64,000 bases of DNA, taken from contig JAYOYH010000007.1 in the NCBI GenBank assembly GCA_038153405.1, positions 43,096 through 107,095 of the forward strand. The letters run 5' to 3'. The DNA is from Gemmatimonadota bacterium (GTDB lineage: Bacteria > Latescibacterota > UBA2968 > UBA8231). The translations under genes were made by a program, and so were the position numbers. Below the pieces are notes generated by a model, which worked only from the letters and a program-made list of their open reading frames with translations, did no database searches and was not told the origin of the DNA. Below are positions 17,443 through 57,946 of the stretch, in pieces (the first letter of the stretch is position 1; every line of letters starts with the position of its first letter).

Positions 17443-17509
17443 TCGCCGTGCCGTTGCAAAAAGGGCGATTGCCCGTAATGTTTAATGAAGTGATTTAAAG
17501 GAAATTTTT

Positions 17510-23657: not shown

Positions 23658-23661
23658 GAAC

Positions 23662-37452: not shown

Positions 37453-37551
37453 GGTTTCGGACGCAACGAAAAGGCAAAAGGATTCGCTGAGCGGAGGCGA
37501 ATGTCCATGAAAATAGAGCGGTTTTTATACTTCTCGGGTGAGGGAGCAATT

Positions 37552-40526: not shown

Positions 40527-43500
40527 ATGCTTCTTGTGAATCTTCTCGTGATTGCCATAATGGGCGGAGCTGTGGGGTTGACGTCGCGCTATTTTTCCCC
40601 GCAAGAGCTGCAAGATCGCTTTGGCTTTGGGCAAAAGCTCTATGCCTTGGGCGACTACGAGAAGGCCTTGCCTCATTTCGAAGCCGTTATGGCGACGAAA
40701 AACAACATCACGATCAACGTCGAAGATGTCACTGTTACTCTCGACGAGTTTATCTTGCCCGTGCGAGTTGCTGCCACCTATCAGCTGGGCAATACGCACA
40801 ACAAGCTGGGGCAGGACAAACTGCGCCGCTCGGGGTTCTTGCGCGCAGAGGGCAAAGAGGATCAAGCCGATCAGCGCTACCAAGAGGCATTGGAGGAATT
40901 CAAGCGCAGCTTGGAGTATTTTGGCGAAATAAGCGCTGGCGAAGAAATCGATGAGCGCACGCGGGTTATGGCGCAATTCCAGACGCTTGAAACCAACTAC
41001 AAGCTCAAGCAATTTGATAGCGTGATTGAAGAGGGGGAACGCCTGCTCGAGCAGTTTCCCAACAGCGTGTATGAGACGGCCGCTTACTATAATATCGGCT
41101 GGTCGTATTACGAATTGGGTCAATACGGCAACGCTATCGACAACTTTAAAGAAGTGATAACGCTGTCGCCGCGCGGTTCGCACGCCGACCGCTCATACTT
41201 TCAGATCGCCGAATCGTACGGCAATTTGGAAGAGTACGACCAATCGCTGAACTACCTGGACCGGCTCATACGGCGCTATGACTTTTCCGCGATGTCGGAA
41301 AAGGAACTGATAGAAATGGCCAGCCTCAAGCTCAAAGGCCTCGTCGAGGAGACCTCGCGTGAATTGGTCGCCAAAGCACAGCTCAAGCGCGGCGATATTT
41401 TTTCCCGGCGCGGCGATGTAGATATGGCGCTGGCGGCCTATGCCAATGTGCCGGAAAAGTATCCGATGGAGACGGCACTAGTCGAGAATGCCTACATTCG
41501 CTCAGCCGAACTGATCAACGAAACGCGCGGCACCGACGCGGCGCTTATCGCCTACCAGAGCGCCATTGAAAACGTTGACGACAAGCGCTTTCAGGCCAGA
41601 ACTCAGCTGACGATCGCGCGCTTGCTGTTTGAAAAAGATGCCTTTGAACGGGCGGCCGAGCAGTACCGCATCTTCCTCAGCGCCTACGGAGACGTGGCGG
41701 CGCGCATTGGCTTTGCCGAAGACAAGGTGCTCTTCCGCATCAGCCAGTGTCACCAAGCGCTGATTCGCACGCACTTGGCCAACGGCAATGCCGATGGGGC
41801 AGACGAAGCAACGGCTGAGGCGTTGAGGATCTACGACGAGCTGCTAGTCAAACACGGCGATAGCCCGCTGTTGCCCGACGTCTACTTCTCGCGCGGTTAC
41901 GCCCGCCAGCTAATAAAAGACGCAGGAGCAGCCGACGACTTCACGCATATGGTTAGTACCTACCCCGATCACCCAGCCGCCCCCAATGCGCTTCTGCAGC
42001 TTGCGCGCATCGACTTTGAGGCGGGTAAGTTCCAGAGGGCACAGGCGACCTATGAGCGATTGCTGACGGACTTTCCCGAATCTGACCCGATCAATCCCGC
42101 GCGTATGGAACTGGGTCTGTGCTTCAAGAATATGAACGACCTGACCCGCGCAATCGCCTCCTTTGAATCGATTGATTCGCAGTGGAGCCAGTGGGGCAAA
42201 GTGCAGGCTGAGTTGGCCGACCTCTACGTGCGTTCCGGCGATCGCTCGGGTGCCAAGCGCGTGCTCGAGCGCGCTATGGAGCAGGTTGACAGCGATGAAC
42301 TGCGCGGACAGCTCGTTTACGTAAAATCGCGCGTCCACTTCACCGAGGCCGAGTATCGCGAGGCCATTGAAGGCTTTTCGCAAGCGCTGGAACTGCCTAT
42401 TCGCGAAGATATTTACAACGGTTCGCTTCTCTCGCGGGGCAGTGCATACTACGAACTGGCCAAAACGCTCGATGCCAAGGGCGATACGGCGCGCGCGCGC
42501 GGCGAATACGAGTTGTCTTTGATTGATATGAAAGCGCTCCTTGAGCGCGACCCGCCAGCCAACATAAAGGACAGCGCATTTCGTACTTTGGGTGCGGGAA
42601 TGATCCGTCTGCAGCGAGAGGACGAGGCCGTTCGCTACTACAAAGAGCTCATCGCATCCAGCGATGATCAGCAGCAGCGCGCGACGTTTCAAATGCTGCT
42701 GATGGAGCTCTATTTTGATCAGCAGGCCTTCGAACAGTCTGAAATCTTTGCCCGAGAGCTCCTCGAAATGGATTTCGAGGACGACAACAACGCCGGCTAT
42801 TACCGCAAAGAACGCGCCTATTCAATAATTGGCAACGCGCTTGTTCAGCGCAAAGATTATGCGGAAGCCAGTAAGATTTTCGCCGAAGGGCTAGCCCAGT
42901 ATCCACAGTCGGGTGAGAGCGCCAACCTGGCCTTTTCCAAGGCGTTTTCTGATTTCAATGGCGGCGATTACGAACTGGCCGCTAAGGGGTTTGCTTTTTA
43001 TGTCAATTCGTTTTCGAACGATCGCAATGCCGTACACGGCCAGTACTACCTGGCCCATAGCTATCAAATGCTCACCGACTTTGATAGCGCGGCGACGTCA
43101 TTCAGTGAGCTAATGGATCGCTATCCTCGCTCGAACTATACCGAAGAGGCGATGTTCTTAGTCGGGGAAAATTACTACAACAAGCGCGATTTCGCCGCCG
43201 CTTCGCAGGCCTATTCTACGCTGCTAGAGCGCTTTCCGAAGGGAAGGTATGGCGACGCGGCTCTGTACGCCAAGGCCTGGTGCGAATTCGAGCAAGAAGA
43301 TATGGAAGCGGGAGTGGCTTCAATGGCCCAGCTCGTAAGCAACTTTCCCCAAAGCGAGTTTGCCGCCAAAGCTCAGTTTACGGTTGGCGATTACCACTAC
43401 AACAACCGCAACTATAAAGAGGCGCTCAAAGCCTACTCTGTCTTGATCGAGTCCTATGCCTCTACGCCGGAAAAACAGCGCGCAGAAGCTCTCGTCGAAG

Positions 43501-43799
43501 AACTGAGCGAAATCGAGGCGAGTTTGGATTACGCTCAGGTTATGGGCAAATTCGAGTCAAAAGACTATGAAAATGCCATTAGGGGTTTTAAGGAAATTAT
43601 CGAGAAATATCCCGATACCTATACGCAGCTGGCTGCCTATTGCAATCTGGGGCTCACCTACGAGATCCTCAGGCAGTGGCCTCAAGCTGTCGAGAATTAC
43701 GATCAAACCCTGGCCAGAGGGGAGGGCGATATCGAAAATTCGGACGTCGTCAATTTTGCTCGTCTGCACCGGGATTGGATCGTCGAAAACAGGCTATAA
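40527..43799 (+). CDS. 1090-aa TPR-repeat protein with an N-terminal membrane anchor
   Basis: An N-terminal TM (LLVNLLVIAIMGGAVGL) followed by more than 20 TPR-like units throughout (YNIGWSYYELGQYGNAIDNFKEVI and many others). Periplasmic scaffold-like. Confidence 0.8.
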   Translation: MLLVNLLVIAIMGGAVGLTSRYFSPQELQDRFGFGQKLYALGDYEKALPHFEAVMATKNNITINVEDVTVTLDEFILPVRVAATYQLGNTHNKLGQDKLRRSGFLRAEGKEDQADQRYQEALEEFKRSLEYFGEISAGEEIDERTRVMAQFQTLETNYKLKQFDSVIEEGERLLEQFPNSVYETAAYYNIGWSYYELGQYGNAIDNFKEVITLSPRGSHADRSYFQIAESYGNLEEYDQSLNYLDRLIRRYDFSAMSEKELIEMASLKLKGLVEETSRELVAKAQLKRGDIFSRRGDVDMALAAYANVPEKYPMETALVENAYIRSAELINETRGTDAALIAYQSAIENVDDKRFQARTQLTIARLLFEKDAFERAAEQYRIFLSAYGDVAARIGFAEDKVLFRISQCHQALIRTHLANGNADGADEATAEALRIYDELLVKHGDSPLLPDVYFSRGYARQLIKDAGAADDFTHMVSTYPDHPAAPNALLQLARIDFEAGKFQRAQATYERLLTDFPESDPINPARMELGLCFKNMNDLTRAIASFESIDSQWSQWGKVQAELADLYVRSGDRSGAKRVLERAMEQVDSDELRGQLVYVKSRVHFTEAEYREAIEGFSQALELPIREDIYNGSLLSRGSAYYELAKTLDAKGDTARARGEYELSLIDMKALLERDPPANIKDSAFRTLGAGMIRLQREDEAVRYYKELIASSDDQQQRATFQMLLMELYFDQQAFEQSEIFARELLEMDFEDDNNAGYYRKERAYSIIGNALVQRKDYAEASKIFAEGLAQYPQSGESANLAFSKAFSDFNGGDYELAAKGFAFYVNSFSNDRNAVHGQYYLAHSYQMLTDFDSAATSFSELMDRYPRSNYTEEAMFLVGENYYNKRDFAAASQAYSTLLERFPKGRYGDAALYAKAWCEFEQEDMEAGVASMAQLVSNFPQSEFAAKAQFTVGDYHYNNRNYKEALKAYSVLIESYASTPEKQRAEALVEELSEIEASLDYAQVMGKFESKDYENAIRGFKEIIEKYPDTYTQLAAYCNLGLTYEILRQWPQAVENYDQTLARGEGDIENSDVVNFARLHRDWIVENRL

Positions 43800-43835: not shown

Positions 43836-44504
43836 ATGTCGGAAAATTTTATAGTCGGCCAGTTTCTCAAGGGCGGTCCAATGATGTGGCCGCTATTGAT
43901 CTGTTCTCTCATTTCGATGGTCGTTGCCATCGACCGCCTGTTGAGCTATATGCGCCTGCCGTCTGAGGAAGAGGCGGAAGCACATCTTTCGGAAGTGGAA
44001 TCGGTGTTGGAAAAGGGCGGCGAAGCGGCCGCCGTAGAGCACTTCAAGGCGAATAAAGGCGTGCTCAATTACGTTTTTGCCGCGTTGTTAAAACGCTATG
44101 ACTCGCTCGTTTTAGAGAATCGGACGGATGTGGAGGATATGCGGCAGGAACTCATCACGGTTACGGAAGAGGCGGGCATCGACTATCTCGGCCGTCTGCT
44201 CAATGCCTTAGGGACGATTGGGGTGCTCGCACCGCTCATGGGGCTGCTGGGAACGATCGTGGGAATGATCCGCGCCTTTGACGCCATTGCCCAGGCCGGT
44301 GCCGGCGATCCGGCCGCCGTGGCCAGCGGTATTTCCGAAGCGCTTATCACCACGGCTTCGGGTCTGATCGTGGCCATTCCGACCATCGTCTTTCACCGTT
44401 ACCTATCTGCCCGGGCCGACAAGGCGTATAAGGAGATTGAACTCTACTGCCATGCCTTCGCCAACACGCTTATCGTTCGCTTTAGCAATCAGCGCGAGAG
44501 CTAG
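43836..44504 (+). CDS. exbB: MotA/TolQ/ExbB-family proton channel
   Basis: The classic core LGTIGVLAPLMGLLGTIVGMIRAF....GAGDPAAVASGISEALITTASGLIVAIPTIVFHRYL, with 3 TM segments and a length of 222 aa. Confidence 0.85.
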   Translation: MSENFIVGQFLKGGPMMWPLLICSLISMVVAIDRLLSYMRLPSEEEAEAHLSEVESVLEKGGEAAAVEHFKANKGVLNYVFAALLKRYDSLVLENRTDVEDMRQELITVTEEAGIDYLGRLLNALGTIGVLAPLMGLLGTIVGMIRAFDAIAQAGAGDPAAVASGISEALITTASGLIVAIPTIVFHRYLSARADKAYKEIELYCHAFANTLIVRFSNQRES

Positions 44505-44519
44505 AAGAGGAGAAGGGGG

Positions 44520-44966
44520 ATGCCCAAAAGGCCAGCACTAGCTCGGCGAATAAAGGGCAAGGCGCGCAATAATGCGCGTTTTGCGACCAGTACAGATCCG
44601 GATATGACGCCGTTGATCAACTGCATCTTTCTGCTATTGGTCTTCTTTATGGTGGCGACGACCTTTCTCAATACTAAGGGGCTTAGCGTTGATTTGCCTG
44701 GAGGCCAGGGGGATGATTCTTCGCGCGCTAGCAAAGATATCAACATCGTCATAGAAAAAGACGGTGCGATACAGGTCAACGGCGAATTGACGACGACCGA
44801 GCAGCTTGCCGAGCGGATTGGCAATATCGTTCAGTCCGATAATATCAAGAATGTGATTATAGAGGCGCATCGCACCGTTCGACACCAAACGGTGGTCCAG
44901 GTCGTCGATATCGCGCGCGGACAGGGTATCCAAGCGGTGGCTTTTGCCAAGTCGGCGGAGGGCTAG
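44520..44966 (+). CDS. exbD: ExbD/TolR-family protein (copy 1)
   Basis: DMTPLINCIFLLLVFFMVATTF is the ExbD TM signature, with a periplasmic domain following. The length is 148 aa. Confidence 0.85.
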   Translation: MPKRPALARRIKGKARNNARFATSTDPDMTPLINCIFLLLVFFMVATTFLNTKGLSVDLPGGQGDDSSRASKDINIVIEKDGAIQVNGELTTTEQLAERIGNIVQSDNIKNVIIEAHRTVRHQTVVQVVDIARGQGIQAVAFAKSAEG

Positions 44967-44968
44967 CC

Positions 44969-45418
44969 ATGGCGCGCAGAATGCAGACAAGCGATGCCAA
45001 CAACAACGATCTTAACCTGACACCCCTGATTGACGCGGTCTTTCTATTGCTGGTCTTTTTTATGGTCACGTCAGTTTTTGTACAGGCCACGCAGTTAAAG
45101 ATCGAGTTGCCCATTGCCGACAACTACGACAAGATCGACCAGGAGAAAAAGCTGAGCCTGCTCATTTCGGCCGAGGGGCAACTCGAGTTTAACAGTCAGT
45201 TGGTGAGCATGGGCCAGTTGACCGGCTTCATTGAGGACGAACGCCTGCGTTCGGGGTCGGGCACCCTCATCATAACGGCCGATGCGCAAACGCCGCACGG
45301 CTTTGTACTCGATGCGATGGAAATGGCGGTAATGGCAGGTGTGAGCAAGATCGACCTCGAAACCGGCGAAAACAAAGCGGCCGGAGAGGCCAGCGCCGCG
45401 GCCGCAGCAAAGGAATAG
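44969..45418 (+). CDS. exbD: ExbD/TolR-family protein (copy 2)
   Basis: DLNLTPLIDAVFLLLVFFMVTSVF. It starts 3 nt after the copy-1 stop, and the length is 149 aa. Confidence 0.85.
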   Translation: MARRMQTSDANNNDLNLTPLIDAVFLLLVFFMVTSVFVQATQLKIELPIADNYDKIDQEKKLSLLISAEGQLEFNSQLVSMGQLTGFIEDERLRSGSGTLIITADAQTPHGFVLDAMEMAVMAGVSKIDLETGENKAAGEASAAAAAKE

Positions 45419-45421
45419 CGA

Positions 45422-46216
45422 ATGACGTCCCTTCGGTTGAGTTCTATTGCCCTGTGTATGTCCCTTATCGCCACGCTGAGCGGATGTGCCTATCTGGCCA
45501 GCCTCATCCCGCAAGAGATGTATTACGAAATCTCTCTCAGCCCTTTGCTGCCCGAGGGGAGAGGTGAGTATCAGGTTGACCCCGACGATCCCCAAGCGGT
45601 GACGTTTAGCCACGAGGGCATGGTCGTACGGGTGCGGCCCTATACCGACGACGAACTCAACGCGCTCTATCCACCGCTCTTTGACGGGCGCCATACCAAT
45701 CCCTACACCACCGATCAACTCAATGTGGATCTCGGCTACGTGCCGCCGATTTTTATGGTGTTTGACATAACGGTGGTCAACCAGACGTATTCCAAGATCG
45801 AATTTGACCCGGCTAGGACTTTGCTTACGACCAATACCGGACGCAAGCTGCGCTATTACGATCCCGGTAGAGCTGGAGAGGGCGTAGATCCGCTGGGTGG
45901 AAACCGCTTTAGCACCTATTATCAGACGGAGCGGGGCCGTTCGGGTATCGATAAGGACATCAACTTGGAACGCATGGGCCTTATTTACAAAACGGCTTTC
46001 CATCGCTTTCGCCCCGTCTTTCGCGGCGACGAGCGCAGCGGCACGCTGACCTTTGATAAGTTGCCTCCCGATGCGACCGAGGTGGTCCTTTCAGTTGATG
46101 ACTTCGTCCTTTCTTTTGACGCGAGCGGCAACCCCGAACGGACCATTGACTTTGAGTGCCGGTTTAAAGTCAACCAGGGCGTTGTTGAAAGCCAAGTCGA
46201 TCCGCTGTTAGATTAG
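45422..46216 (+). CDS. Lipoprotein, uncharacterised family (paralog of 33524..34285)
   Basis: Lipobox TLSGCA, with FDITVVNQTYSKIEFDP and C-terminal DFVLSFDASGNP...F..RFKVNQGVVE blocks shared with 33524..34285. Confidence 0.65.
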   Translation: MTSLRLSSIALCMSLIATLSGCAYLASLIPQEMYYEISLSPLLPEGRGEYQVDPDDPQAVTFSHEGMVVRVRPYTDDELNALYPPLFDGRHTNPYTTDQLNVDLGYVPPIFMVFDITVVNQTYSKIEFDPARTLLTTNTGRKLRYYDPGRAGEGVDPLGGNRFSTYYQTERGRSGIDKDINLERMGLIYKTAFHRFRPVFRGDERSGTLTFDKLPPDATEVVLSVDDFVLSFDASGNPERTIDFECRFKVNQGVVESQVDPLLD

Positions 46217-46344: not shown

Positions 46345-47985
46345 ATGTCGTCTTTGTCGCTCGCCCTATGTGGGCTGCTGATGGCCTGTGGCGGCGAGAA
46401 GCCGGCGCCCACACTGCTGGCACGAGTAGGCGATAAGTCCATCCATATCGACGATCTCATTGCTTTTGAGCGCGCCATTGAAAGCGGAGATTCGCTGAGC
46501 GCAGAGGCGCATCGCCAGCACCTTAATACGCTCGTCGATCGCGAAGTGCTGATCTTGGAAGCGCGAGCCCAAGGCTTGGAGACCGATGCCTATTTTCAGC
46601 AGGTACTGGCTGGTGATATTGAAACTAAACTAGCCGAAATGATGTTTAATCAGGAGGTGGCCGAGCGCTCTGAACCGACGCCGGAAGAAATTGAGGCGGC
46701 CTATGCCACCGGTGATTGGAAGCAGCAGGTCGTAAGCGTTGAGCTGTTCTTGCCCGACGAGGAAACGGCGCTTAGGGTGCGCGCGGAAATTCTCAATGGA
46801 ATGGACATCTTCGAGGCCGGTCGACTCTATTCGGTTGACCGCCTAATGCACATTCCGATGGGCGGTGCTCAGCAGTTTGTCTATTCCAAACAGGATGGAC
46901 CGGCCGAAGTCGTTCAGCGCGTTTTTCAGATTCCCGCCGGTAGTATTTCATCGCCTATACCGCTATTTAATGGCTTTGTCCTAGCCTACGTCGCCGAGTA
47001 CCGCGACGTCCAGCGTGCGGAGGTCGCCGACGAATTGGCCCGCTATGTTCGCAAGGAAAAGCGTCGCTTGCTGCGGGGGGCCTATTTGCAGCATTTGAAC
47101 AAAGCGCTCAATCTGCAGTTTTCATCGACCGGTTTAGAGCGCGCTGTTGCCCATTTGTCGCAGCTGAAAGCGGACGATTCGACGCCGCTGCCGGCCGACT
47201 CCAATGCGGTGGTCTATTCGTACGGTGACGCGTCTGCCGACCTGGGGACCGTTGTGGGATTGATGCAGGGTCCGGCGCGGCGCTGGCCCGAAATAAATTC
47301 GGAAAATATCGTCGCCGAAATAAAGAATACCGTATTGCCGAATCTGCTAATGGCCGCCAATGCGCGCGAACGCGATATCGATTCCTCGCCCGAGTTCCTC
47401 GCCTGGAAGAGCTGGCGCAGCGAGGATTTGCTCCTTTCGCTGCTGCGCAAAACCGTTTGCTCCGGCATCGAGGTGTCAGAAGATGAGGTGGTCTCGCACT
47501 ATCGGAAAGTGAGGCGGCGCTTTCGCATTCCCGGCTATGCCCGAGTGCGCGATGTGCTGGTGGCAACGCGGGAGGAAGCTGTTGCGCTCAAAGAGGCCGT
47601 TGAAAATGGAGCCGACTTTGCCCAGATCATTGAGGAGCATTCCCTGCGCAAGGGCAGCAAAAAAGGCGTGTTTCGCGTCTTTGCCCTACAGGCCAATAAA
47701 TATGGCAGCGGGTGGATGAACTACGCGTTTAACGTCCCTATCGGACAGCTTGAGGGGCCCGTGCAGGCCGAAGGGGGATTTTCCCTATTGGAAGTAGTCG
47801 AACGGGTCGATGATGCCTATTATTCCCTCGACGAGTCTAGGGTGCGCTCGGCGGTCACGCGCGATATGCAAAAAATAAAAGAACGCAGCGCGTTTAATGA
47901 ATTTGTAAGGGACGTGCGCGCAAGGCGCGCTGAGCAAATTACCCTATACCAAGATCATCTGGCAGCTGTTTGGGAGCGCCCGTAG
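46345..47985 (+). CDS. SurA/PpiD/PrsA-like periplasmic chaperone lipoprotein with a parvulin-type PPIase domain
   Basis: The signal ends LLMACGG (lipobox). The parvulin domain RVRDVLVATREEAVALKEAVENGADFAQIIEEHS..KG.....F..G.M...F....F....G.L.GPV....GF.LLEV is typical of PpiC/SurA. Confidence 0.75.
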   Translation: MSSLSLALCGLLMACGGEKPAPTLLARVGDKSIHIDDLIAFERAIESGDSLSAEAHRQHLNTLVDREVLILEARAQGLETDAYFQQVLAGDIETKLAEMMFNQEVAERSEPTPEEIEAAYATGDWKQQVVSVELFLPDEETALRVRAEILNGMDIFEAGRLYSVDRLMHIPMGGAQQFVYSKQDGPAEVVQRVFQIPAGSISSPIPLFNGFVLAYVAEYRDVQRAEVADELARYVRKEKRRLLRGAYLQHLNKALNLQFSSTGLERAVAHLSQLKADDSTPLPADSNAVVYSYGDASADLGTVVGLMQGPARRWPEINSENIVAEIKNTVLPNLLMAANARERDIDSSPEFLAWKSWRSEDLLLSLLRKTVCSGIEVSEDEVVSHYRKVRRRFRIPGYARVRDVLVATREEAVALKEAVENGADFAQIIEEHSLRKGSKKGVFRVFALQANKYGSGWMNYAFNVPIGQLEGPVQAEGGFSLLEVVERVDDAYYSLDESRVRSAVTRDMQKIKERSAFNEFVRDVRARRAEQITLYQDHLAAVWERP

Positions 47986-48104: not shown

Positions 48105-50105
48105 ATGGATCTGAACGTGGCCGATGCAAGAGGGCAGGAGCGCTTCGAAATAATGCCCGAAGACGCGCCGTTTGAGCCAGGGTTTAATATCAAGACGCTC
48201 TGGGCGGCGCTCTTTGTCGGATTCGTTATGTTGCCGGGGGCTATTTACCTCGGATTGGTGACCGGGCAGAGTATGGCCGGCGGCGCCGAGTGGGTGACGC
48301 TCATTCTCTTTATCGAGATTGCCAAGCGCACCTTTGTCCGCCTGCGCACACAAGAGATTATTATTCTCTACTGGGTGGCCGGTGGCTTGGTGCTGATGGG
48401 GGGGAAGCTAGGCACGGGGGCCGACCTGTTTGGCGGTCCGTTTGGCGTGCTCATTTGGGATCAGTATTTAATTCAATCCCCCCAGGCCAATGGCTTGGCC
48501 GAGCACATTCCGGATTGGGTCGTGCCGCCGCGCGGATCGGAAGCGCTGCTCGAGCGCAGCTTTCTGCACGCGGCCTGGATCAAGCCGATTTTCATATTGC
48601 TCGTAGCGGTGGTACTACAGCGGATCAATGCCCTCTCGCTAGGCTATGCGCTCTTTCGCATAACCCACGATATAGAGCGCTTGCCCTATCCCATGGCCTA
48701 TGTGCAGGCTGGGGGAGCTACCGCTCTTGCAGAAACCTCATCGCAAAAAGAAGGTTGGCGCTGGCACGTATTCAGCACGGGTACTTTTATCGGGGCGGTC
48801 TGGGGTCTGTTGTATGTCGTGGTGCCAACGCTGTCTTCTGTATTTCTCACGGAGACGGTTTCCGTTCTGCCCATTCCCTTTATTGATTTCACGGTGCCCA
48901 TGAAGTCGGTGCTGCCGGCTGCAGTAATCGGTTTGGCTACCGATCTCATTCACGTGCTCATTGGATTGGTGCTGCCCTTTTGGGTTGTCGTGGGCGTATT
49001 TTCATCGTCTATTCTAGCCAATCTGGTGGCCAACCCGCTGCTCTATGCCAGTGGGGTATTGCACACCTGGGAACCGGGTATGTCGGCTATTCCGACGATG
49101 ATCGCCAATTCGTTCGACTTTTGGCTGAGCTTCTCCATTGGGGGGGCTATCGTCGTGGCATTGGTCGGTTTTACCACGGCATTTATTTCGCTGCGCGCGG
49201 CACAGCGCTCCGTGGCGCAGCCATCTGATCGAGGCGGTCCCAGCCCCGAGCGCGGCGATATACGCATCGTCTATGCATTGGGTATCTGGGCGTTGAGCAC
49301 GCTGGCCTTTGTTGGGATGGTTTACTATCTGGTGCCCCAATTCCCCTGGTGGATAACTGCCTTTTTTGGCTTTGTGTGGACCCCTATTTACTCCTATATC
49401 GGCGCGCGCATGGTCGGTTTAACTGGCAGCCCACAGGGGGTGACTTTTCCCTACCTGCGCGAGGCGAGCTTCTATCTTTCGGGTTATCAGGGCGCGGGGA
49501 TTTGGTTTGCTCCCGTACCGATCTTCCAGTGGGGGTATGAGGCGCAGACCTTTAAGCAACTCGAGTTAACGCGCACTCGCTTCGGTTCGCTAATAAAAAT
49601 GACGGCCCTGACCCTCTTGGTCATGTTCGTCTGCTCGTTTTTGTTTTGGTCGCTCATTTGGAAATTGGGACCGATTCCCTCGTCGGCCTATCCCTATGTG
49701 CAAAAGCTCTGGCCCTTTCACGCGACGATGCAGGCTTTTTGGGTCAAATCGACGCTGCCAGGTGCCAGTTCGAACCTGCTGACGCAGATCATTCGCTGGG
49801 ACTATATCGGCATCGGGTTGCTCTTCAGCAGCGTGCTCTACGCCGCCCTCCACGTGCTGCACGCGCCGATGGCTATTTTCTACGGTTTTGTCGCTGGGCT
49901 CGGACAGTGGCCGCACTTTGTGATCTTAAATTTTATTGGAGCCATGCTCGGGCGCTTTTACCTGCAAAAGCGCTTTGGCGAGGAACGCTGGCGGGCCTAT
50001 GCGCCGATTTTGCTGGCCGGCTATTCCTGTGGGGTGGGACTCATTGGCATGAGTTCGATTGCCATTGCCCTGATTTCCAAAGCCGTTTCACAGGTCGTCT
50101 TTTAG
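48105..50105 (+). CDS. Large polytopic membrane protein (666 aa), uncharacterised family
   Basis: At least 12 hydrophobic helices, rich in W/Y/G, with no transporter signature recognised by eye. It is encoded immediately upstream of a related-looking 634-aa membrane protein. Confidence 0.6.
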   Translation: MDLNVADARGQERFEIMPEDAPFEPGFNIKTLWAALFVGFVMLPGAIYLGLVTGQSMAGGAEWVTLILFIEIAKRTFVRLRTQEIIILYWVAGGLVLMGGKLGTGADLFGGPFGVLIWDQYLIQSPQANGLAEHIPDWVVPPRGSEALLERSFLHAAWIKPIFILLVAVVLQRINALSLGYALFRITHDIERLPYPMAYVQAGGATALAETSSQKEGWRWHVFSTGTFIGAVWGLLYVVVPTLSSVFLTETVSVLPIPFIDFTVPMKSVLPAAVIGLATDLIHVLIGLVLPFWVVVGVFSSSILANLVANPLLYASGVLHTWEPGMSAIPTMIANSFDFWLSFSIGGAIVVALVGFTTAFISLRAAQRSVAQPSDRGGPSPERGDIRIVYALGIWALSTLAFVGMVYYLVPQFPWWITAFFGFVWTPIYSYIGARMVGLTGSPQGVTFPYLREASFYLSGYQGAGIWFAPVPIFQWGYEAQTFKQLELTRTRFGSLIKMTALTLLVMFVCSFLFWSLIWKLGPIPSSAYPYVQKLWPFHATMQAFWVKSTLPGASSNLLTQIIRWDYIGIGLLFSSVLYAALHVLHAPMAIFYGFVAGLGQWPHFVILNFIGAMLGRFYLQKRFGEERWRAYAPILLAGYSCGVGLIGMSSIAIALISKAVSQVVF

Positions 50106-50228: not shown

Positions 50229-52133
50229 ATGACCTATAGATCGTTCATATTGGGCACCTTGGTGGTGCTGGCTGTGGTCTGCGGGGCGCCCTATGCCATC
50301 TGGATGGTGCGCTCGTCGGAAATCACGTGGTCCTATTTTCCCACCAGCGTTGGCTTTTGCTTTGTCGTCCTCTTTTTGCTCAATGCACTCATACAGAAGG
50401 TGAGCGGTCGGTCTTTTCTACAGCCAAGTGAGTGGGCGATTGTCGTGATTATGGGTTTGGCGGCCACGGGTATACCGACCTTTATCGTCGGCACGCTATT
50501 GGCCATTATTTCCAGTCCATACTACGGGGCAACGCCCGAAAATGACTGGGAGGGCAATATTCACGCTTTCCTCCCCGACTGGCTGGTGCCTAGCCCCGAA
50601 GGCGGAGCCATGCGCCATTTCTACGAGGGGCTGCCCGCCGGCCAGGAGGTGCCCTTTGACGTCTGGATGGGGCCGCTGTTCTGGTGGCTGAGTCTTATTT
50701 TTTCCATCTACTTTATCTGCTTTTGCATGGTCGTGCTGTTTCGAAGGCAGTGGGTTGAAAACGAGCGCTTGGTCTTTCCGCTGATGGAAATGCCGCGCCT
50801 ATTGGTCGACGAAGATGGTCGTCATCTGCTGCGTTCTAAGCTATTCTGGGCCGGGTGTGCTGTGCCCCTGTCTATGATGCTGTTTAACGTGGTGGGTTAT
50901 TTCTACATTGGGTTTCCGCAAATAAACTTTCACCACCCCGTTACGATCGAGTTGAGTCGCGATTTTCCCGCACTCTCGCTCATGCTCTACTTTCCCGTCA
51001 TCGGTTTTATGTATTTGGTGAGCACCTCCGTTTCGCTCAGCATCGTCGTCTTTTACCTAATCGCTGTTCTGCAGGAGGGGATTACCAATCGCATTGGCTA
51101 CGACGTGACGCGCCCCGATGCCTGTGTCTGGGGCATGCAGTCGCTTTCCTGGCAGGCGTGGGGCGGATTTACGGCGATGGTGCTGATCAGTTTGTGGATG
51201 GCTCGGCGACATCTGGGCGCTGTCGCTGGCCAGGTCTTTGCCGGGCAAAGGACCGTGGACGATAGCGAGGAGATGATTTCCTACCGCACAGCGGTTTACG
51301 GTTTCCTCTTGGGGTTGCTCTACGTGGTGGGCTGGCTGTGGAAATCCGGTATGGATCTGCACGTCGCCCTGCTCTTTATCGGCGCCGTATTGATCGCCTA
51401 TTACGGCGTTACCCGCCTGGTTATCCAGGCCGGCATTTACTTTCTGACCCCCCCAGTGGGTGCCCAAGCATTTGCCCTAGCCATAACCGGCACGAGCATT
51501 GGCGGTCACAACTTGGTTGCTCTGGGGCTCTCCTACGCCTGGTTTGGCGACGTGCAGTCGCTCTTTATGCCGGCGGCTGCGCACGGGGCGCGCCTAGCCG
51601 AAATTTATCGCGTGCGTCGCGGTATGGCTTGGGCGCTGGGGGCGGCCGTGCTGATCGGTTTTGTCGCCAATATCTACTTTGTCCTGACGCTGTGCTACAA
51701 GTTTGGCGCGGGCAATTTTGGCTCCTGGTACTTTGTTGCCGGGGGCGGAGCAGGAGGCATGGCTTTTAACGGAGTCATTCGCCATTTTAACGATCCCTGG
51801 CCGATGGATGTAAACAAGCTTAGCTACTTTGCCATTGGAGCATGTGCCTACGCGCTGCTGGCATTTTGTCAATATCGCTTTTACTGGTGGCCACTGTCGC
51901 CCGTAGGGATTGCCGTCGCACCACTGTGGATGACGCGTCTGATCGTGTTTTCGGTCTTTTTGGCTTGGGTGAGCAAGAGTGCCATTATGCGCTATGGGGG
52001 GATTAGCGCCTACCGCACGGCGCGGCCATTTTTCATGGGGCTGATCGCGGGTTATTTTCTCGGCGTCGGCATTTCCTACTGCATAGATGCCATTTGGTTT
52101 ATGGGGGACGGACACGTTTATTTTCACGGCTAG
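50229..52133 (+). CDS. Large polytopic membrane protein (634 aa), paralog of 60796..62802
   Basis: It shares extended blocks with the 60796..62802 product: GAPYAIW..SSEITWS(Y/F)FP..VGF.FV, MGL..TGIP.F..G, W..P.FWWLS.I...Y..CFC.VV..R.QWVE.ERL..PLME.P, FLAWV.KS.IMR.GGI. Confidence 0.7.
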   Translation: MTYRSFILGTLVVLAVVCGAPYAIWMVRSSEITWSYFPTSVGFCFVVLFLLNALIQKVSGRSFLQPSEWAIVVIMGLAATGIPTFIVGTLLAIISSPYYGATPENDWEGNIHAFLPDWLVPSPEGGAMRHFYEGLPAGQEVPFDVWMGPLFWWLSLIFSIYFICFCMVVLFRRQWVENERLVFPLMEMPRLLVDEDGRHLLRSKLFWAGCAVPLSMMLFNVVGYFYIGFPQINFHHPVTIELSRDFPALSLMLYFPVIGFMYLVSTSVSLSIVVFYLIAVLQEGITNRIGYDVTRPDACVWGMQSLSWQAWGGFTAMVLISLWMARRHLGAVAGQVFAGQRTVDDSEEMISYRTAVYGFLLGLLYVVGWLWKSGMDLHVALLFIGAVLIAYYGVTRLVIQAGIYFLTPPVGAQAFALAITGTSIGGHNLVALGLSYAWFGDVQSLFMPAAAHGARLAEIYRVRRGMAWALGAAVLIGFVANIYFVLTLCYKFGAGNFGSWYFVAGGGAGGMAFNGVIRHFNDPWPMDVNKLSYFAIGACAYALLAFCQYRFYWWPLSPVGIAVAPLWMTRLIVFSVFLAWVSKSAIMRYGGISAYRTARPFFMGLIAGYFLGVGISYCIDAIWFMGDGHVYFHG

Positions 52134-52190
52134 TGCGCCGTAGCTGTTGGGGCTATGGTCCCGAATGGGAAGGTTTCGAGGGAGTTGGCT

Positions 52191-55100
52191 ATGAAGAAAT
52201 TGCTCAGTGGAGCGGTCCTGGTCTTTGCGCTGGGAATGGTGCTGGCGCTGGCCGTTGGCGATCCGCAGCGGATCAATACGCGAGTAAATGCCTTTTTCGG
52301 CTGGGAGCCAACGCCTCCACGGGCCGAGCGCCTAGTGGGCGAAGAGGAGGCTGGGGCCCTGCGCGCGCTGGTATCGGGCATTCGCCGTCAGGATGTGGCT
52401 GCCGAGATTGAGCATTTTGCCGCTATGGGATCCCGCGTTACGGGCTATCCGGGTGAGCGCCGTGCCTATGAGTATATTCGCGACCGTTTTGCCGAATTGG
52501 GGTTAGATGATGTCCGCAGCGAGGCCTTTTCAGTCACAGTGCCCATTGACAAGGGAGGGCAATTGCACCTTCCCAACGGTCAGGTAAAAGAGCTCTACAG
52601 CCTGTGGCCCAACGGCGTGCGCACGCCTTCGCTGCCGGCTGGCGGCATACGAGGGCCGCTGGTATATGGCGGCAAGGGAACGCTGGAAGAGGTGGACGGT
52701 AAGGTGCTAGACGGCGCGATCGTCTTACTCGATTTCGACGGTGGGCAAAACTACTTGAACCTGGCCACGCTGGGAGTTCGAGCGGTCGTCTTCTTCGACA
52801 ACGGCGGCGTCAATCGCGAGCAGGCCGCCGACAAATTTCTCAAGGTCTCGGTCGACGTCCCGCGGTTTTGGATCGAGCGCCAAGATGCATTGGCGTTGGT
52901 AGACGAGCTGCAGCGCAATTCGGTGCAGGTTCGGGTCGAGGCGCAAATGGATTGGGAGGCGGTGGAGGCCCGCAATATCTACGGTTGGCTACCCGGCTCC
53001 GAGGCCATGATGCCGCCCAAAAGTCGCGAAGGCGATCAGGCGTGGAGGGAACAGGTCATCGTCGTGCAGGCCTATTACGATGCGATGTCGGTGGTCCCTG
53101 CTAGGGCGCCTGGGGCGGAAAATGCCGCCGGCATTGTCGCCCTGCTCAAACTGGCCGAAACGCTTAGGGAACAGCGACCGCAATACTCGGTGTTATTCTT
53201 GGCGACATCGGGGCATTTTCAGGGGCTGGAAGGCATCAACGACTTCCTCTATCGGCACAGTCGCGGCAGCGAGTATTTTCGCGAGCGCATGGCCGATGCC
53301 GAGCGCATAGACTTCGACCTAATGCTCTCGCTCGACCTATCGAGCCACGGCCAGCGCAGTGCTTCCTTTGGCATGGGGACCTTCTACAACCCCGAGTGGC
53401 AGACCGACAACTACGTCAAATACATGCTCACCCCTTATTCCAAGCGCTTAAGTCAGGCCATCGAAGAGATTTTTGCCGATTCCACGCGCCACTACGAGGG
53501 GATCGCGCCCCCCAAGCGCACGTGGAAAAATTTCATGCCTATTCCGCTGGCCTTTGCCAGCGAGGCGGCCGCCTTTGTCGGGCAAAAGGCCCTGGCGCTG
53601 GCCACGGCCAACGATGCGCGCAGAGCGGTCGACACGCCCCTCGACGTGCCCGAAGCAATGAATCTGGACAATCTCACCCGGCAGATCCGCACGCTGGCCG
53701 CTATGCTGGCATGGGCCGGGCGCGATGCCGAATTGCTCAAGCCGGGCAAGTTGGAACTGGAAGACTATGGGCACAGCCTAGCCGGGTCCATTTACTGGTT
53801 TGATCGGGACGTAAACTTTGCCGTGCCCAAATCGCCGGTGGCCGGTGCACTGGTGACCTACCAGCAGCAGGGGCCCAATTCGGTGGCCGGCGTGCGCACG
53901 CTCATGGTGCGCAAGGCCGACGACGAAGGGCGATTTCGCTTTGATATCATGCGCAATCGCTACGAAAATACCATCAAGGCCTACGAAATTGATGCGCGCG
54001 GTCAGATCGTTTCTGCGCCCGATATGGGGCAGGAAGGGGACGAGACCTATCCTATGGCTCACCCCTGGGGTTGGTGGGAAAATGAAATGCTGCAGGTCCT
54101 CTTTAAATGCCGCGCGCTGAGTCTGTTTGAAACGGTCGACTCGCGCTACCTATCGGTGCTCGATCACGTAACGGTACTCGACGATCGCGACGGTGTGCCG
54201 CAGTCGTGGGGGGCCGACTACGTCGAGCGCCAGAGCAACGAAGAGGGTAAGGTCACGCTGGCTTCCGTCGTCTACGCTCAGCCGGGCACGCGGGTCAAGG
54301 TGCTGATGAGCACCAGTCTGTTTGGCGTGCGCTACTTGCTCAGCGGTGCCCCCGATGCGCTCCTAGAAAACCCCGTTCAGCCGGAAGAAGTCGACGAGGG
54401 AGTGCTAAAGCGCGCGTTGGGCAATGGCTATCCCATCGACGCCGGCACCGTGCTGCGGCCGAGTTATGCAGCGGCGCGCGATATGTGGACGCTCGACGAC
54501 GCGCGCATCAAGCAGTTGGCCCGCTACGGGGTGCGCAACGACAAGTTTATGCGTCTGCACGAGGAGGCGCGCGCCGCGCTGATGGCGGCGCGCGAGCACC
54601 TCGATGCACTTCGCTACAGCCAGTACAAGGCCAGCACGCGGGAAGCGTGGGGCTTAGAGGGGCGAGGGTATCCAGATATCAAAGCAACGGCCGATGATAC
54701 CGTATACGGCGTGATTTTTTACTTTGCTCTGCTGCTGCCTTTCTCCTTTTGCTGCGAGCGGCTCTTTTTCGGCTTTGCCGACGTGCGCAGGCAGATGCTG
54801 GGCGCGGCGCTATTCTTTCTCGGCATCTTCCTCCTCATGCGCTTTATCCACCCGGCGTTTAAGTTGTCGTCATCGCCCTATATCATTTTCTTGGCCTTTG
54901 TAATTTTTGCCATTGGCGGCACGGCGCTCATGATGATTCTCGGCCGCTTTACGCGCGAGGTCAGCCAGCGCAAGCGCGCATCGGCCGGCGTACACGAGAC
55001 CGATATCGGCCGCATTAGCGCAACGGCAGCGGCGGTTGCACTGGGCATTTCGAACCTGCGCAAGCGCAAAGTCCGCACCCTACTAACCGTTGTCACATTA

Positions 55101-56810
55101 ACATTGCTAACATTTACGGCACAAGCATTTACGTCTGTTCAAAGTTATTTGAAGTACTATCAGATTCCGCGTCCTAACGCCCCAAGCTATGAAGGTGCTC
55201 TGCTGCGCGATCGCGGTTGGAAGGGCATGCAGCTTTCTGTGCTCGACTATGCGGAGAGCGCTTTCGGCAGCGAGGGCCAGGTGCTGCCGCGCTCCTGGCT
55301 GTCGACCCACCTGATTGGCGAGCGCGCCTACATCGATGTGCAGCGCCGGGAGACAGGGGCCGAAAGCTTTGCCTTCGCTATGATGGGCGTGGTCCCTGCG
55401 GAGCGCGATCTGATGGGGTATGGCGATATGCTGGTCGGTGCGGAGAGTCGCTTTTTTGCCGAAGGGGAGCGCGACGTATGCATTTTGCCCCAGGCGCTGG
55501 CCGAAATTCTCGGCATCGGCGCGCAGGACGTCGGCCGCGTCGAGGTGTGGATCATGGGACAGGCCTACCGCGTTATCGGCTTAATCGACGGGGAGCAAAT
55601 CGATGTGCTGCGCGATTTGGACAACGAGAGTCCCATGCCGGTCGATACGGTGGCCGAGGCGCAGAAAATGCAAGAAATGGCCAATCTCGACCCGCGCCTG
55701 ATGGATACGGCGGCCATCGAAACCTTTACGCACCTGCTGGCCAACAACGTCGTTTTATTGCCCTATCAGAAGGTGATTGATCTGGGGGGCACGCTGCGCT
55801 CAATCGCCCTGGCCGACTTTTCCGACCGCCAGGTTCTGCTCGACGAGGTCGAAGACTTTGTGTCTCGGGTGGCCGTTCCGCTCTTTGTCGGCGCCGACGA
55901 GCGCGTGCGGGTCTATACTTCAATGGGTTCGGCGTCGCTGTCGGGGATGGGCAACCTGTTCGTGCCGATGCTCATCGCCGCGCTGATCGTCCTCAATACC
56001 ATGTTGGGTTCGGTCTATGAGCGCTCGTCGGAAATTGGCGTATACAGTTCGGTGGGGCTGGCCCCCGGGCACATTTCCTCGCTCTTTATCGCCGAGAGTA
56101 TGGTATTTGCCATCGTCGGCGCGGTGCTGGGCTATCTCGTCGGCCAGTCGACTACCCTCTTGCTAACGCGCTACGAACTGCTGGGGGGGATGTTTCTCAA
56201 CTACTCATCGCTTTCGGCCATCACCTCGACGCTGATCGTCATGGCCACCGTAGTTCTTTCCACGCTCTATCCGGCCCGCAAAGCGGCGTCGATGTCCGTG
56301 CCCGATGTGACGCGGCGCTGGACCTTTCCCGAACCCGACGGCGATCGCTGGCAGTTCGACTTTCCCTTTACGCTGGCGCGCAACGATGCGCTGGGCAGCG
56401 GGGCTTACCTGCACCGGGTATTTTCCTCCTACGGCGAGGGATCGGTGGGCGATTTCATGACCGAAGACGTGGCGTTTCGTCGGGAGCGCGGCGGAGCCGA
56501 TCCGATTTACGCACTCGAACTCATGGTTTGGCTAGCTCCCTACGATTTGGGCGTGAGTCAGCGCGTCGTCTTGCGCATGCTGCCGACGGAGGATATCGCC
56601 GGCATCTATCGCATCGAAATGCAGATAGAGCGGATCAGCGGCGACGTGGCCTCGTGGAAGCGACTCAATTCAGGTTTCCTCAACGTGCTGCGCAAGCGCT
56701 TTCTCGTATGGCGCACTATTCCCCAGGAAATGCGCGCAGCATACCGGCAGCAGGGAGACGAATTGGCCGAGGCATCCACCGTGCCGCAGGGGGCATCTGC
56801 CCGCACTTAG
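52191..56810 (+). CDS. 1551-aa fusion protein: signal/TM, then PA plus M28-peptidase-like ectodomain with degenerate active-site motifs, then C-terminal FtsX/MacB-type ABC permease domain(s)
   Basis: GAGGGAG Shine-Dalgarno before ATG 52191 (MKKLLSGAVLVFALG). Residues ~100-420 show the PA-domain and M28 layout, but with YYDAMS where HxDS is expected, GAENAAG where GA(D/N)DDGSG is expected, and ATSGHFQG where the EE(x)GLxGS-type motif is expected. Residues ~860-1450 show MacB/FtsX topology: TM, a large loop, then three TMs with SSVGLAPGHISSLFIAESMVFAIVGAVLGYLVG...LYPARKAASMSVPDV. No ATPase gene is adjacent. Confidence 0.7.
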   Translation: MKKLLSGAVLVFALGMVLALAVGDPQRINTRVNAFFGWEPTPPRAERLVGEEEAGALRALVSGIRRQDVAAEIEHFAAMGSRVTGYPGERRAYEYIRDRFAELGLDDVRSEAFSVTVPIDKGGQLHLPNGQVKELYSLWPNGVRTPSLPAGGIRGPLVYGGKGTLEEVDGKVLDGAIVLLDFDGGQNYLNLATLGVRAVVFFDNGGVNREQAADKFLKVSVDVPRFWIERQDALALVDELQRNSVQVRVEAQMDWEAVEARNIYGWLPGSEAMMPPKSREGDQAWREQVIVVQAYYDAMSVVPARAPGAENAAGIVALLKLAETLREQRPQYSVLFLATSGHFQGLEGINDFLYRHSRGSEYFRERMADAERIDFDLMLSLDLSSHGQRSASFGMGTFYNPEWQTDNYVKYMLTPYSKRLSQAIEEIFADSTRHYEGIAPPKRTWKNFMPIPLAFASEAAAFVGQKALALATANDARRAVDTPLDVPEAMNLDNLTRQIRTLAAMLAWAGRDAELLKPGKLELEDYGHSLAGSIYWFDRDVNFAVPKSPVAGALVTYQQQGPNSVAGVRTLMVRKADDEGRFRFDIMRNRYENTIKAYEIDARGQIVSAPDMGQEGDETYPMAHPWGWWENEMLQVLFKCRALSLFETVDSRYLSVLDHVTVLDDRDGVPQSWGADYVERQSNEEGKVTLASVVYAQPGTRVKVLMSTSLFGVRYLLSGAPDALLENPVQPEEVDEGVLKRALGNGYPIDAGTVLRPSYAAARDMWTLDDARIKQLARYGVRNDKFMRLHEEARAALMAAREHLDALRYSQYKASTREAWGLEGRGYPDIKATADDTVYGVIFYFALLLPFSFCCERLFFGFADVRRQMLGAALFFLGIFLLMRFIHPAFKLSSSPYIIFLAFVIFAIGGTALMMILGRFTREVSQRKRASAGVHETDIGRISATAAAVALGISNLRKRKVRTLLTVVTLTLLTFTAQAFTSVQSYLKYYQIPRPNAPSYEGALLRDRGWKGMQLSVLDYAESAFGSEGQVLPRSWLSTHLIGERAYIDVQRRETGAESFAFAMMGVVPAERDLMGYGDMLVGAESRFFAEGERDVCILPQALAEILGIGAQDVGRVEVWIMGQAYRVIGLIDGEQIDVLRDLDNESPMPVDTVAEAQKMQEMANLDPRLMDTAAIETFTHLLANNVVLLPYQKVIDLGGTLRSIALADFSDRQVLLDEVEDFVSRVAVPLFVGADERVRVYTSMGSASLSGMGNLFVPMLIAALIVLNTMLGSVYERSSEIGVYSSVGLAPGHISSLFIAESMVFAIVGAVLGYLVGQSTTLLLTRYELLGGMFLNYSSLSAITSTLIVMATVVLSTLYPARKAASMSVPDVTRRWTFPEPDGDRWQFDFPFTLARNDALGSGAYLHRVFSSYGEGSVGDFMTEDVAFRRERGGADPIYALELMVWLAPYDLGVSQRVVLRMLPTEDIAGIYRIEMQIERISGDVASWKRLNSGFLNVLRKRFLVWRTIPQEMRAAYRQQGDELAEASTVPQGASART

Positions 56811-57925: not shown

Positions 57926-57946
57926 CTGCGCAAGGCGATGCAGGGC

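Follow-up and report, generated by a model that had tools for sequence, protein, structure and literature searches.

A rewired M28/PA peptidase-like ectodomain fused to a MacB/FtsX-type membrane domain and encoded beside OPT-like membrane proteins in Latescibacterota

Results

Domain architecture of the fusion protein

The DNA analyzed here, referred to as the window, is a 64-kb stretch of contig JAYOYH010000007.1 from a Gemmatimonadota bacterium (GTDB Latescibacterota; UBA2968; UBA8231; assembly GCA_038153405.1). It contains a gene with the working name FUS, whose product joins a protease-associated (PA)/M28 peptidase-like ectodomain to a MacB/FtsX-type membrane domain and which follows two genes for polytopic membrane proteins that remotely resemble the OPT superfamily. 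The near-constant adjacency of FUS to such genes, and its occasional fusion to peptide-transporter-like proteins, suggest that they constitute an undescribed envelope module. The coordinates of FUS, its domains and its neighbors are collected in Table 1.

The FUS open reading frame (ORF), as listed and translated, encodes 1551 amino acids, and residues are numbered from the ATG at 52155. A GGGAG Shine-Dalgarno sequence is located just 5' of a second ATG at 52191, and full-length homologues are mostly 1530–1540 residues long (range 1520–1620). Based on these two features the true start is probably ATG 52191, which yields a protein of 1539 residues; this supports the start coordinate chosen in the initial annotation of the locus.

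The same annotation proposed a fusion of PA/M28 and FtsX/MacB parts, which is confirmed by Pfam, by structural matches and by structure models of the two halves of the protein, each predicted from 37-sequence alignments. Pfam identifies an FtsX domain at residues 1270–1381 (E 6e-15) and a partial Peptidase_M28 domain at residues 294–434 (E 6e-8). The N-terminal hydrophobic segment, residues 13–36, is a signal peptide or else anchors the protein in the membrane with its N-terminus inside; in the sequence, two lysines precede the hydrophobic core and an ALA-V motif is a possible cleavage site. The ectodomain that follows adopts the alpha/beta aminopeptidase fold with a PA domain inserted in its N-terminal part. 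A total of 353 FUS residues align with the PA-containing M28 aminopeptidase 2ek8, the profile alignment spans residues 58–355, and PF02225 is annotated on several FUS homologues. No family match was found for the beta-rich and stalk region. In the model of the N-terminal half, with pLDDT mostly above 85, the stalk enters the membrane as a single long helix (residues 821–872) that is continuous with the first of three extra transmembrane (TM) helices. The loop charges around these helices, as read from the sequence, agree with the positive-inside rule.

The membrane domain has the four-helix FtsX fold and the periplasmic domain between TM1 and TM2 that characterize type VII permeases. The elbow helix and TM1, together with TM2–TM4, form the most conserved region of FUS (region conservation 0.79), and D950, G952, R953, N967, R971 and R974 of the elbow/TM1 segment are invariant. 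The cytoplasmic C-terminal domain has a beta-alpha-beta4-alpha2 secondary structure and is distinct from a nucleotide-binding domain (NBD); neither Pfam nor fold comparison revealed an NBD elsewhere in FUS.

Table 1 Features of the FUS locus. Positions are those of the window, except in the last row, where they are those of the two related loci named; aa, FUS residues.
Feature	Position	Strand	Basis or remarks
FUS, whole gene	52155..56810	+	M28/PA-like ectodomain, MacB/FtsX-type membrane domain, KA1-like tail
N-terminal hydrophobic segment, aa 13-36	52191..52262	+	hydropathy; helix aa 6-34 in model
Periplasmic M28 aminopeptidase-fold domain, aa 60-530	52332..53744	+	rewired site Y307, D309, E322, H354, F355, D394, R489
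PA (apical) domain inserted in M28 fold, ~aa 131-275	52545..52979	+
Beta-rich domain (~aa 540-730) and helical stalk (~aa 750-850)	53745..54704	+
Three extra TM helices ahead of FtsX unit, aa 851-942	54705..54980	+	hydropathy; C-half model helices 2-22, 28-55, 59-93
Cytoplasmic elbow helix (RKRKVRT) and TM1 of MacB-type unit, aa 950-992	55002..55130	+	C-half model helices 101-121, 123-143
Periplasmic core domain (TM1-TM2), MacB Porter/Sabre type, aa 993-1265	55131..55949	+
TM2-TM4 of FtsX/MacB fold, aa 1266-1381	55950..56297	+	invariant ER..EIG coupling-helix motif
Conserved cytoplasmic C-terminal alpha+beta domain, aa 1386-1540	56310..56774	+	KA1/helix-grip-like fold
DUF6785+DUF6784 polytopic membrane protein, 634 aa, directly upstream of FUS	50229..52133	+	Pfam E 4e-100 and 1e-21
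X666 polytopic membrane protein, 666 aa, next gene upstream	48105..50105	+	OPT-superfamily-like, divergent
Lipoprotein parvulin-type peptidyl-prolyl isomerase (PPIase; PrsA/SurA/PpiD-like)	46345..47985	+	rotamase domains, NCBIfam PPIase matches, LMAC lipobox
Y264 lipoprotein, 264 aa, unknown family	45422..46216	+	LSGC lipobox
ExbB, ExbD, ExbD (proton-motive-force motor/stator)	43836..45418	+	Pfam MotA_ExbB, ExbD x2
TPR protein, 1090 aa, with YbgF/CpoB, BamD and PorW-like repeats	40527..43799	+	Pfam; NCBIfam TIGR02795 E 1e-68
P993, 993 aa, ends ...LAGF	37501..40482	+	C-terminal Phe signature
Four-gene module of related loci	L055 7999-11110; L080 16387-19673		directly downstream of FUS-X666

The rewired M28 site

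The M28 site was mapped by hidden Markov model (HMM) alignments to 2ek8, Nicalin and the Aeromonas aminopeptidase (AAP); the global hhalign comparison with AAP is reliable only as far as the Glu-Glu motif. The five co-catalytic zinc ligands, His-Asp-Glu-Asp-His (AAP residues 97/117/152/179/256), read Y307, E322, F355, D394 and R489 in FUS. In the HMM alignments, His97 corresponds to Y307, the bridging Asp117 to E322, and the catalytic Glu151 with the adjacent ligand Glu152 to H354-F355. By motif alignment only, Asp179 is kept as D394, and the fifth ligand, His256, appears to be replaced by R489 (RAVDTP compared with HTTQDT in the aminopeptidase). The general-base glutamate is absent as well, H354 being invariant in 37 sequences, and the structure of the AAP E151H mutant (2anp) is among the HMM matches to the FUS motif. 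The rewired positions are invariant in 27–37 FUS relatives that share 38–94% identity.

The same pattern extends to approximately 117 representatives of the family at the 50% clustering level, for which the denominators vary by position (~116 to ~123). The His97 position is occupied by Tyr in 76 sequences, Phe in 14 and His in 9, and the Asp117 position by Glu in 78 and Asp in 20. His replaces Glu151 in 108 of ~116, Phe, Tyr, His, Gly or Cys but never Glu takes the place of Glu152, Asp179 is retained in 104, and Arg occupies the last-His position in 116 of ~123. Judged from these alignments, the canonical co-catalytic (di-zinc) chemistry is lost across the FUS family. Because the replacement residues are themselves near-invariant, the alignments also indicate a pocket under strong purifying selection, one that is re-tooled rather than decaying. 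When single PDB sequences are compared, the motif region matches Nicalin, a eukaryotic pseudo-peptidase, best. Most likely, the pocket serves as a binding pocket or as a non-canonical site for a peptide-like ligand and not as a conventional aminopeptidase.

The zinc-ligand substitutions reported in the initial annotation are therefore real, and aligning the M28 domain shows that the ligands are altered family-wide. Its description of the domain as an inactive pseudo-peptidase stands in part: the canonical ligands and the catalytic Glu are lost, yet a re-tooled and selected pocket would be inactive only with respect to the canonical mechanism. Glutaminyl cyclases keep a single-zinc ligand set of Asp, Glu and His. 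A mono-zinc site of that type was ruled out, the equivalent Glu and His ligands being Phe and Arg in FUS.

The search for an ATPase

FUS has neither a fused nor an adjacent cognate NBD. No ABC-type Walker A motif occurs in the six reading frames of the window, and tblastn searches of the window with three NBD queries detected no ABC ATPase (best E 0.5). A 64-kb stretch of bacterial chromosome without a detectable ABC-type P-loop ATPase is unusual; P-loop-like strings are present only in non-ATPase contexts.

The survey was extended to 84 related FUS loci with up to 10 kb of flanking sequence on each side. ORFs with ABC motifs are absent from 73 of these loci and present in 11, where the nearest is 4.3 kb from FUS; the statement in the initial annotation that no ATPase is encoded nearby thus holds for the window and for its relatives. 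Eight of the 11 loci represent one clade in which the ATPase gene is ~8 kb from FUS. These ATPases were rejected as FUS partners and treated as unlinked because unrelated genes intervene (pyrB/pyrC-like, aminotransferase and creatininase genes).

Two other loci, L055 and L080, from two divergent lineages, carry downstream of FUS-X666 a four-gene module that encodes an unknown ~330-residue protein, a PqqD-like protein, a 228-residue FtsX without a periplasmic domain and a LolD/MacB-type ATPase. The ATPases of the two loci are 74% identical. No such module was found within 10 kb of FUS in the other 82 loci. No other lead to a possible ATPase partner emerged, and the module could either supply the ATPase or be an unrelated peptide-export cassette. 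The conserved FUS module does not include an ATPase.

OPT-like partner genes

The initial annotation placed FUS next to three giant membrane proteins of unknown family. These turned out to be two polytopic OPT-like proteins and a lipoprotein PPIase, and the OPT linkage of FUS had been missed. NCBI labels X666 homologues 'peptide transporter', and PF03169 (OPT) is annotated on some of them; it matches 3 of the 25 X666-family members scanned (best E 3.6e-10). Neither the X666 nor the DUF6785 protein of the window reaches the Pfam OPT threshold. Direct BLASTP comparison of X666 with DUF6785 is not significant and only profile-profile comparison joins them: hhalign aligns equivalent positions of the two families with a probability of 91% (E 1e-6). 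An ERL(P/x)(F/Y)P motif is common to both families. DUF6785, X666 and P993 have no match in sequence searches of the PDB. We consider DUF6785 and X666 to be OPT-like, that is, putative divergent members of the superfamily related to each other as remote homologues. DUF6785/DUF6784 may belong to the OPT superfamily, a relationship that is absent from the Pfam annotation as returned.

A second DUF6785+DUF6784 gene is present in the window (60796-62802, reverse strand); its product is 49% identical to that of the gene adjoining FUS, and it lies next to a PhyH-family dioxygenase gene (59974-60789, forward strand). PhyH and FG-GAP/ASPIC genes also flank a fused FUS-DUF6785 gene in locus L085, and FG-GAP/ASPIC genes are found in the window at 21930-26121.

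Distribution, linkage and fusions of the FUS family

The fusion architecture recurs in other taxa, as the initial annotation had suggested checking. Over 120 full-length FUS homologues were listed, and a search of 185,579 GTDB species genomes located at least 589 FUS loci. The 80 top-ranking ones all belong to Latescibacterota, to 'Gemmatimonadota' or to unclassified metagenome-assembled genomes, and several genomes contain two FUS paralogues. The C-terminal half alone recovers 1,214 clusters (50% identity) at E <= 1e-30, and most of the family comes from Latescibacterota and related metagenome-assembled genomes. Full-text literature searches returned nothing relevant on the FUS architecture (FtsX+M28+OPT), on DUF6785 or on DUF6784, and nothing of use on Nicalin/M28 or on structures of bacterial OPT proteins.

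Linkage to OPT-like genes was counted in the 68 loci where FUS is flanked on either side by 2.5 kb or more. In 65 of them a homologue of X666 or DUF6785 is encoded within 2.5 kb of FUS, and in 40 within 300 nucleotides. Most loci have an X666 homologue adjoining FUS. The pairing of FUS with an OPT-like gene is constant across clades despite differing gene order, which includes X666-DUF6785-FUS, FUS-X666, DUF6785-FUS-DUF6785 and DUF6785-FUS-amidohydrolase-X666. A paralogous cluster, clade 2, has the order P993-PPI-Y264-FUS-DUF6785-X666 in at least 14 loci. Where a genome contains two FUS paralogues, each locus has its own OPT-like genes. Similarity to the window proteins co-varies between FUS and X666 (Spearman rho 0.80, n=58) and between FUS and DUF6785 (rho 0.69, n=43), both correlations being confounded in part by the phylogeny of the species.

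DUF6785 is fused to the C-terminus of FUS in at least four sequences (P0294, P0387, P0389 and P0398). The 2120-residue P0294 contains MacB_PCD, FtsX, DUF6785 (E 9e-120) and DUF6784 in one polypeptide and is encoded by a single uninterrupted ORF, the contig being 123 kb long. Its junction recurs in P0387, with which it is 48% identical, and P0389 and P0398 cross the junction as well. The topology of the fusions is consistent, the FUS C-terminus being cytoplasmic and DUF6785 opening with an N-in helix. Adjacency, co-diversification and occasional fusion with OPT-like proteins are the strongest clue to the function of FUS.

The C-terminal half also serves as a chassis for much longer N-terminal regions, up to 3053 residues in total. 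Among the giant variants of 2450–3050 residues, P0242-P0244 have long N-terminal arrays of Big_5 Ig-like repeats and additional TM segments, and in P0282 a LysM domain (E 4.5e-16) and an NMB0315-like domain are inserted in the ectodomain. All of these variants keep the GH(F/Y) signature. The Big_5 and LysM variants point to an ectodomain that is modular and, in some cases, probably polymer-binding. Representatives of ~720-900 residues that correspond to the C-terminal half only also occur; these are possibly contig-edge fragments or split genes.

Other genes of the locus

FUS is the last gene of a ~27-kb co-directional array (29370-56810, forward strand), in which the genes from P993 to Y264 follow one another at close spacing. 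The array starts with genes for a CBM9-like protein, a 1045-residue unknown protein, two small unknown proteins and an F5/8-type-C protein whose end resembles a type IX secretion system (T9SS) C-terminal domain (CTD). It continues with a weak PorV/PorQ-like match (36553-37452, E 5e-8, below cut-off), P993, the TPR protein, ExbB-ExbD-ExbD, the two lipoproteins and the two OPT-like genes. The entire array may be one large envelope locus. A T9SS-like identity was not adopted for the upstream genes (PorV/PorQ-like, PorW-like TPR, PorU-like CTD), as the matches are below the family cut-offs.

Within the array, P993 is probably an outer-membrane beta-barrel, judging by its C-terminus; it has no Pfam, PDB or NCBIfam match. 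At least 14 loci, in clade 1 (the window type) and clade 2, have a P993 homologue encoded upstream of FUS. The PPIase likewise has homologues in loci of both clades. Y264 has no Pfam or NCBIfam match, and its gene is directly upstream of FUS in the clade-2 cluster. The ExbB-ExbD-ExbD genes occur only in the window-type cluster, with the same order in L001, L005 and L017.

Genes for amino-acid catabolism recur near FUS in divergent lineages (HutH/HutU, amidohydrolase, Ldh_2, RraA-like and creatininase). RraA-like and sometimes GFO/IDH/MocA oxidoreductase genes are located within ~7-8 kb of FUS, in the window at 56807-58636 on the reverse strand. They recur in loci L002, L004, L074, L076-L079 and L083, whose FUS proteins are only ~42-44% identical to that of the window, and several of the RraA-like loci also contain Ldh_2, 2-hydroxyacid dehydrogenase, urocanase/HutH or creatininase genes. 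These RraA-like and oxidoreductase neighbors may represent a linked catabolic pathway. A gene for a DUF4159 protein is present in the window ~24 kb upstream of FUS (26877-28058, reverse strand); in L001 a DUF4159 gene (16643-17821) is ~2 kb downstream of FUS, with a single gene of ~630 codons in between.

Discussion

A proposed role for FUS and its partners

The arrangement described above is best explained, at a confidence that comes close to an even call, by FUS acting as a partner subunit of OPT-like secondary transporters that captures a periplasmic peptide-like substrate and hands it off to them. FUS would be located in the inner membrane, with a large periplasmic head (PA domain, M28 fold, beta domain and stalk) mounted on a MacB/FtsX-type, that is, type VII ABC-like, membrane domain that has its own Porter/Sabre domain, three extra TM helices and the KA1-like cytoplasmic tail. 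It would physically partner the co-encoded OPT-like secondary transporters (DUF6785/6784 and X666). The ectodomain and the Porter/Sabre domain would capture or present the substrate, and the OPT-like partner would carry it across the inner membrane. The two lipoproteins, the probable outer-membrane barrel, the TPR protein and ExbBD of the window-type cluster would extend this into an envelope-spanning acquisition route. A nutrient role fits the recurrent amino-acid catabolic neighbors. What we infer, as opposed to observe, is that the proteins form a complex, that the substrate resembles a peptide, which way it is transported and what the ectodomain does.

One extension of this proposal is unlikely in our estimation. 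In it, the FtsX/MacB mechanotransmission scaffold would have lost its ATPase and would work in tandem with an OPT-superfamily transporter driven by protons, the two being covalently fused in some lineages. Either the conformational cycle of the carrier would move the Porter/Sabre domain and the pseudo-peptidase head, or the head would gate the carrier. The result would be a hybrid of a type VII ABC-like machine and a secondary carrier, a class hitherto undescribed. The proposal and the alternatives discussed below are not all mutually exclusive.

Several observations weigh against a partnership of FUS with OPT-like carriers. The evidence for a physical link is indirect, namely adjacency and fusion. 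The OPT assignment is remote: X666 of the window itself has no Pfam match, and the link of DUF6785 consists of one 91% hhalign match over 141 columns. The LysM-bearing variant hints at peptidoglycan, not at nutrient peptides. In L055 and L080, FUS-X666 is followed co-directionally by the conserved set that includes a LolD/MacB-type ATPase. Moreover, conservation within FUS is highest in the elbow and the ER..EIG coupling helix, the cytoplasmic elements through which true type VII ABC permeases touch their NBD, a pattern that fits an ATPase encoded elsewhere no less well than a scaffold that works without one.

These last points bear on the main alternative, one that we regard as doubtful, in which FUS is an orphan type VII ABC permease, a homodimer or paired with a short FtsX, whose LolD/FtsE/MacB-type ATPase is encoded elsewhere. 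As in FtsEX-EnvC or LolCDE, mechanotransmission would then couple ATP hydrolysis to movement of the Porter/Sabre domain and of the pseudo-peptidase head, and the OPT-like genes would be pathway neighbors and not the source of energy. The invariant ER..EIG motif within an FtsX fold, the elbow helix as the most conserved element and the short FtsX and LolD-type ATPase after FUS-X666 in L055/L080 all speak for it, and FtsX-type permeases without an adjacent ATPase are a recognized class, to one of whose families, NCBIfam ADOP (TIGR03434), FUS has a weak match. Canonical type VII permeases, however, are almost always fused or adjacent to their NBD, whereas the window has no ABC ATPase, the great majority of related loci have none within 10 kb and no locus has one closer than 4.3 kb. 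The ATPases of the one clade that has them at ~8 kb are parted from FUS by unrelated genes, and the cytoplasmic face of FUS is occupied by the KA1-like domain and, in the fusions, by DUF6785.

It is improbable that FUS is instead a re-tooled but active hydrolase, in which E322, H354 and D394, with Y307 and R489, would form a non-canonical, perhaps mononuclear or metal-free site that trims periplasmic peptides or another amide substrate to an OPT-importable size. Conservation of the pocket would allow for such a site, but the catalytic Glu151 and the ligand Glu152 are never kept, the Arg at the last-His position, judging by the motif, would fill the metal site, the pseudo-peptidase Nicalin is among the sequences nearest to the motif region, and the ligand pattern is unlike that of glutaminyl cyclases. 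Least probable, and very unlikely, is an envelope-remodeling regulator in the manner of FtsEX-EnvC/PcsB, whose dead head would bind stem peptides or control a separate hydrolase while the OPT-like proteins recycle released (muro)peptides. FtsX does control the catalytically dead LytM factor EnvC (PMC7668044). The LysM and NMB0315-like domains in the P0282 ectodomain, and the YbgF/CpoB-type TPR protein and ExbBD (Tol-like) of the window cluster, are in line with such a role; however, of the variants examined just one has LysM, FUS has no conserved neighbor that is an amidase or another peptidoglycan hydrolase, and the several FUS paralogues per genome, each with its own transporter genes, are more like nutrient-uptake families than a division machine.

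Type VII ABC systems such as MacB, LolCDE, FtsEX, HrtBA and YbbAP are defined by ATP-powered mechanotransmission, and FUS keeps their membrane and periplasmic machinery without a linked ATPase. If the partnership with the OPT-like proteins is physical, it would constitute a new use of the MacB fold, provide the first functional handle on DUF6785/DUF6784 and on a divergent bacterial OPT-like family, and point to a route by which Latescibacterota and their uncultured relatives of the FCB group, bacteria that abound in soil and sediment, acquire peptides or organic nitrogen.

Comparison with known systems

FUS shares the fold of the type VII ABC (MacB-FtsX) superfamily, which includes MacB, LolC/E, FtsX, HrtB, YtrF and YbbP, but differs from these proteins in having no fused or adjacent NBD, in the addition of four TM segments, an 830-residue PA/M28-like ectodomain upstream and a KA1-like cytoplasmic domain downstream, and in being paired with, and occasionally fused to, OPT-like secondary transporters. 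Its partner genes resemble the OPT superfamily (PF03169) in their ~650-residue polytopic products; no report known to us pairs an OPT protein with an FtsX-type partner. The ADOP proteins are FtsX/MacB_PCD-type permeases like FUS and typically lack an adjacent ATPase gene, which is what 'orphan' in their name means. They have a duplicated PCD-FtsX unit in ~800 residues and no peptidase-like domain, and FUS was rejected as a member based on its single FtsX unit and a score of 24.6 bits compared with the cut-off of 622.

The FtsEX-EnvC system (PcsB, CwlO and RipC in other bacteria) is similar to FUS in combining an FtsX-type membrane domain with a periplasmic metallopeptidase-like module that lacks catalytic residues, a likeness from which the idea of mechanotransmission in FUS derives. 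EnvC, however, is a separate M23/LytM protein that associates non-covalently, and FtsE supplies ATP, whereas the module of FUS is of the M28/PA type and covalently fused, with no FtsE nearby and no conserved amidase partner. Conceptually close to FUS are also the membrane-anchored M28-fold pseudo-peptidases Nicalin (of the BOS complex), the transferrin receptor (TfR) and GPAA1, a small set to which FUS is a bacterial addition. Unlike FUS, these proteins are eukaryotic and single-pass and have unrelated partners, and the substitution pattern of FUS is distinct from theirs, with His in place of the catalytic Glu and Arg at the last-His position.

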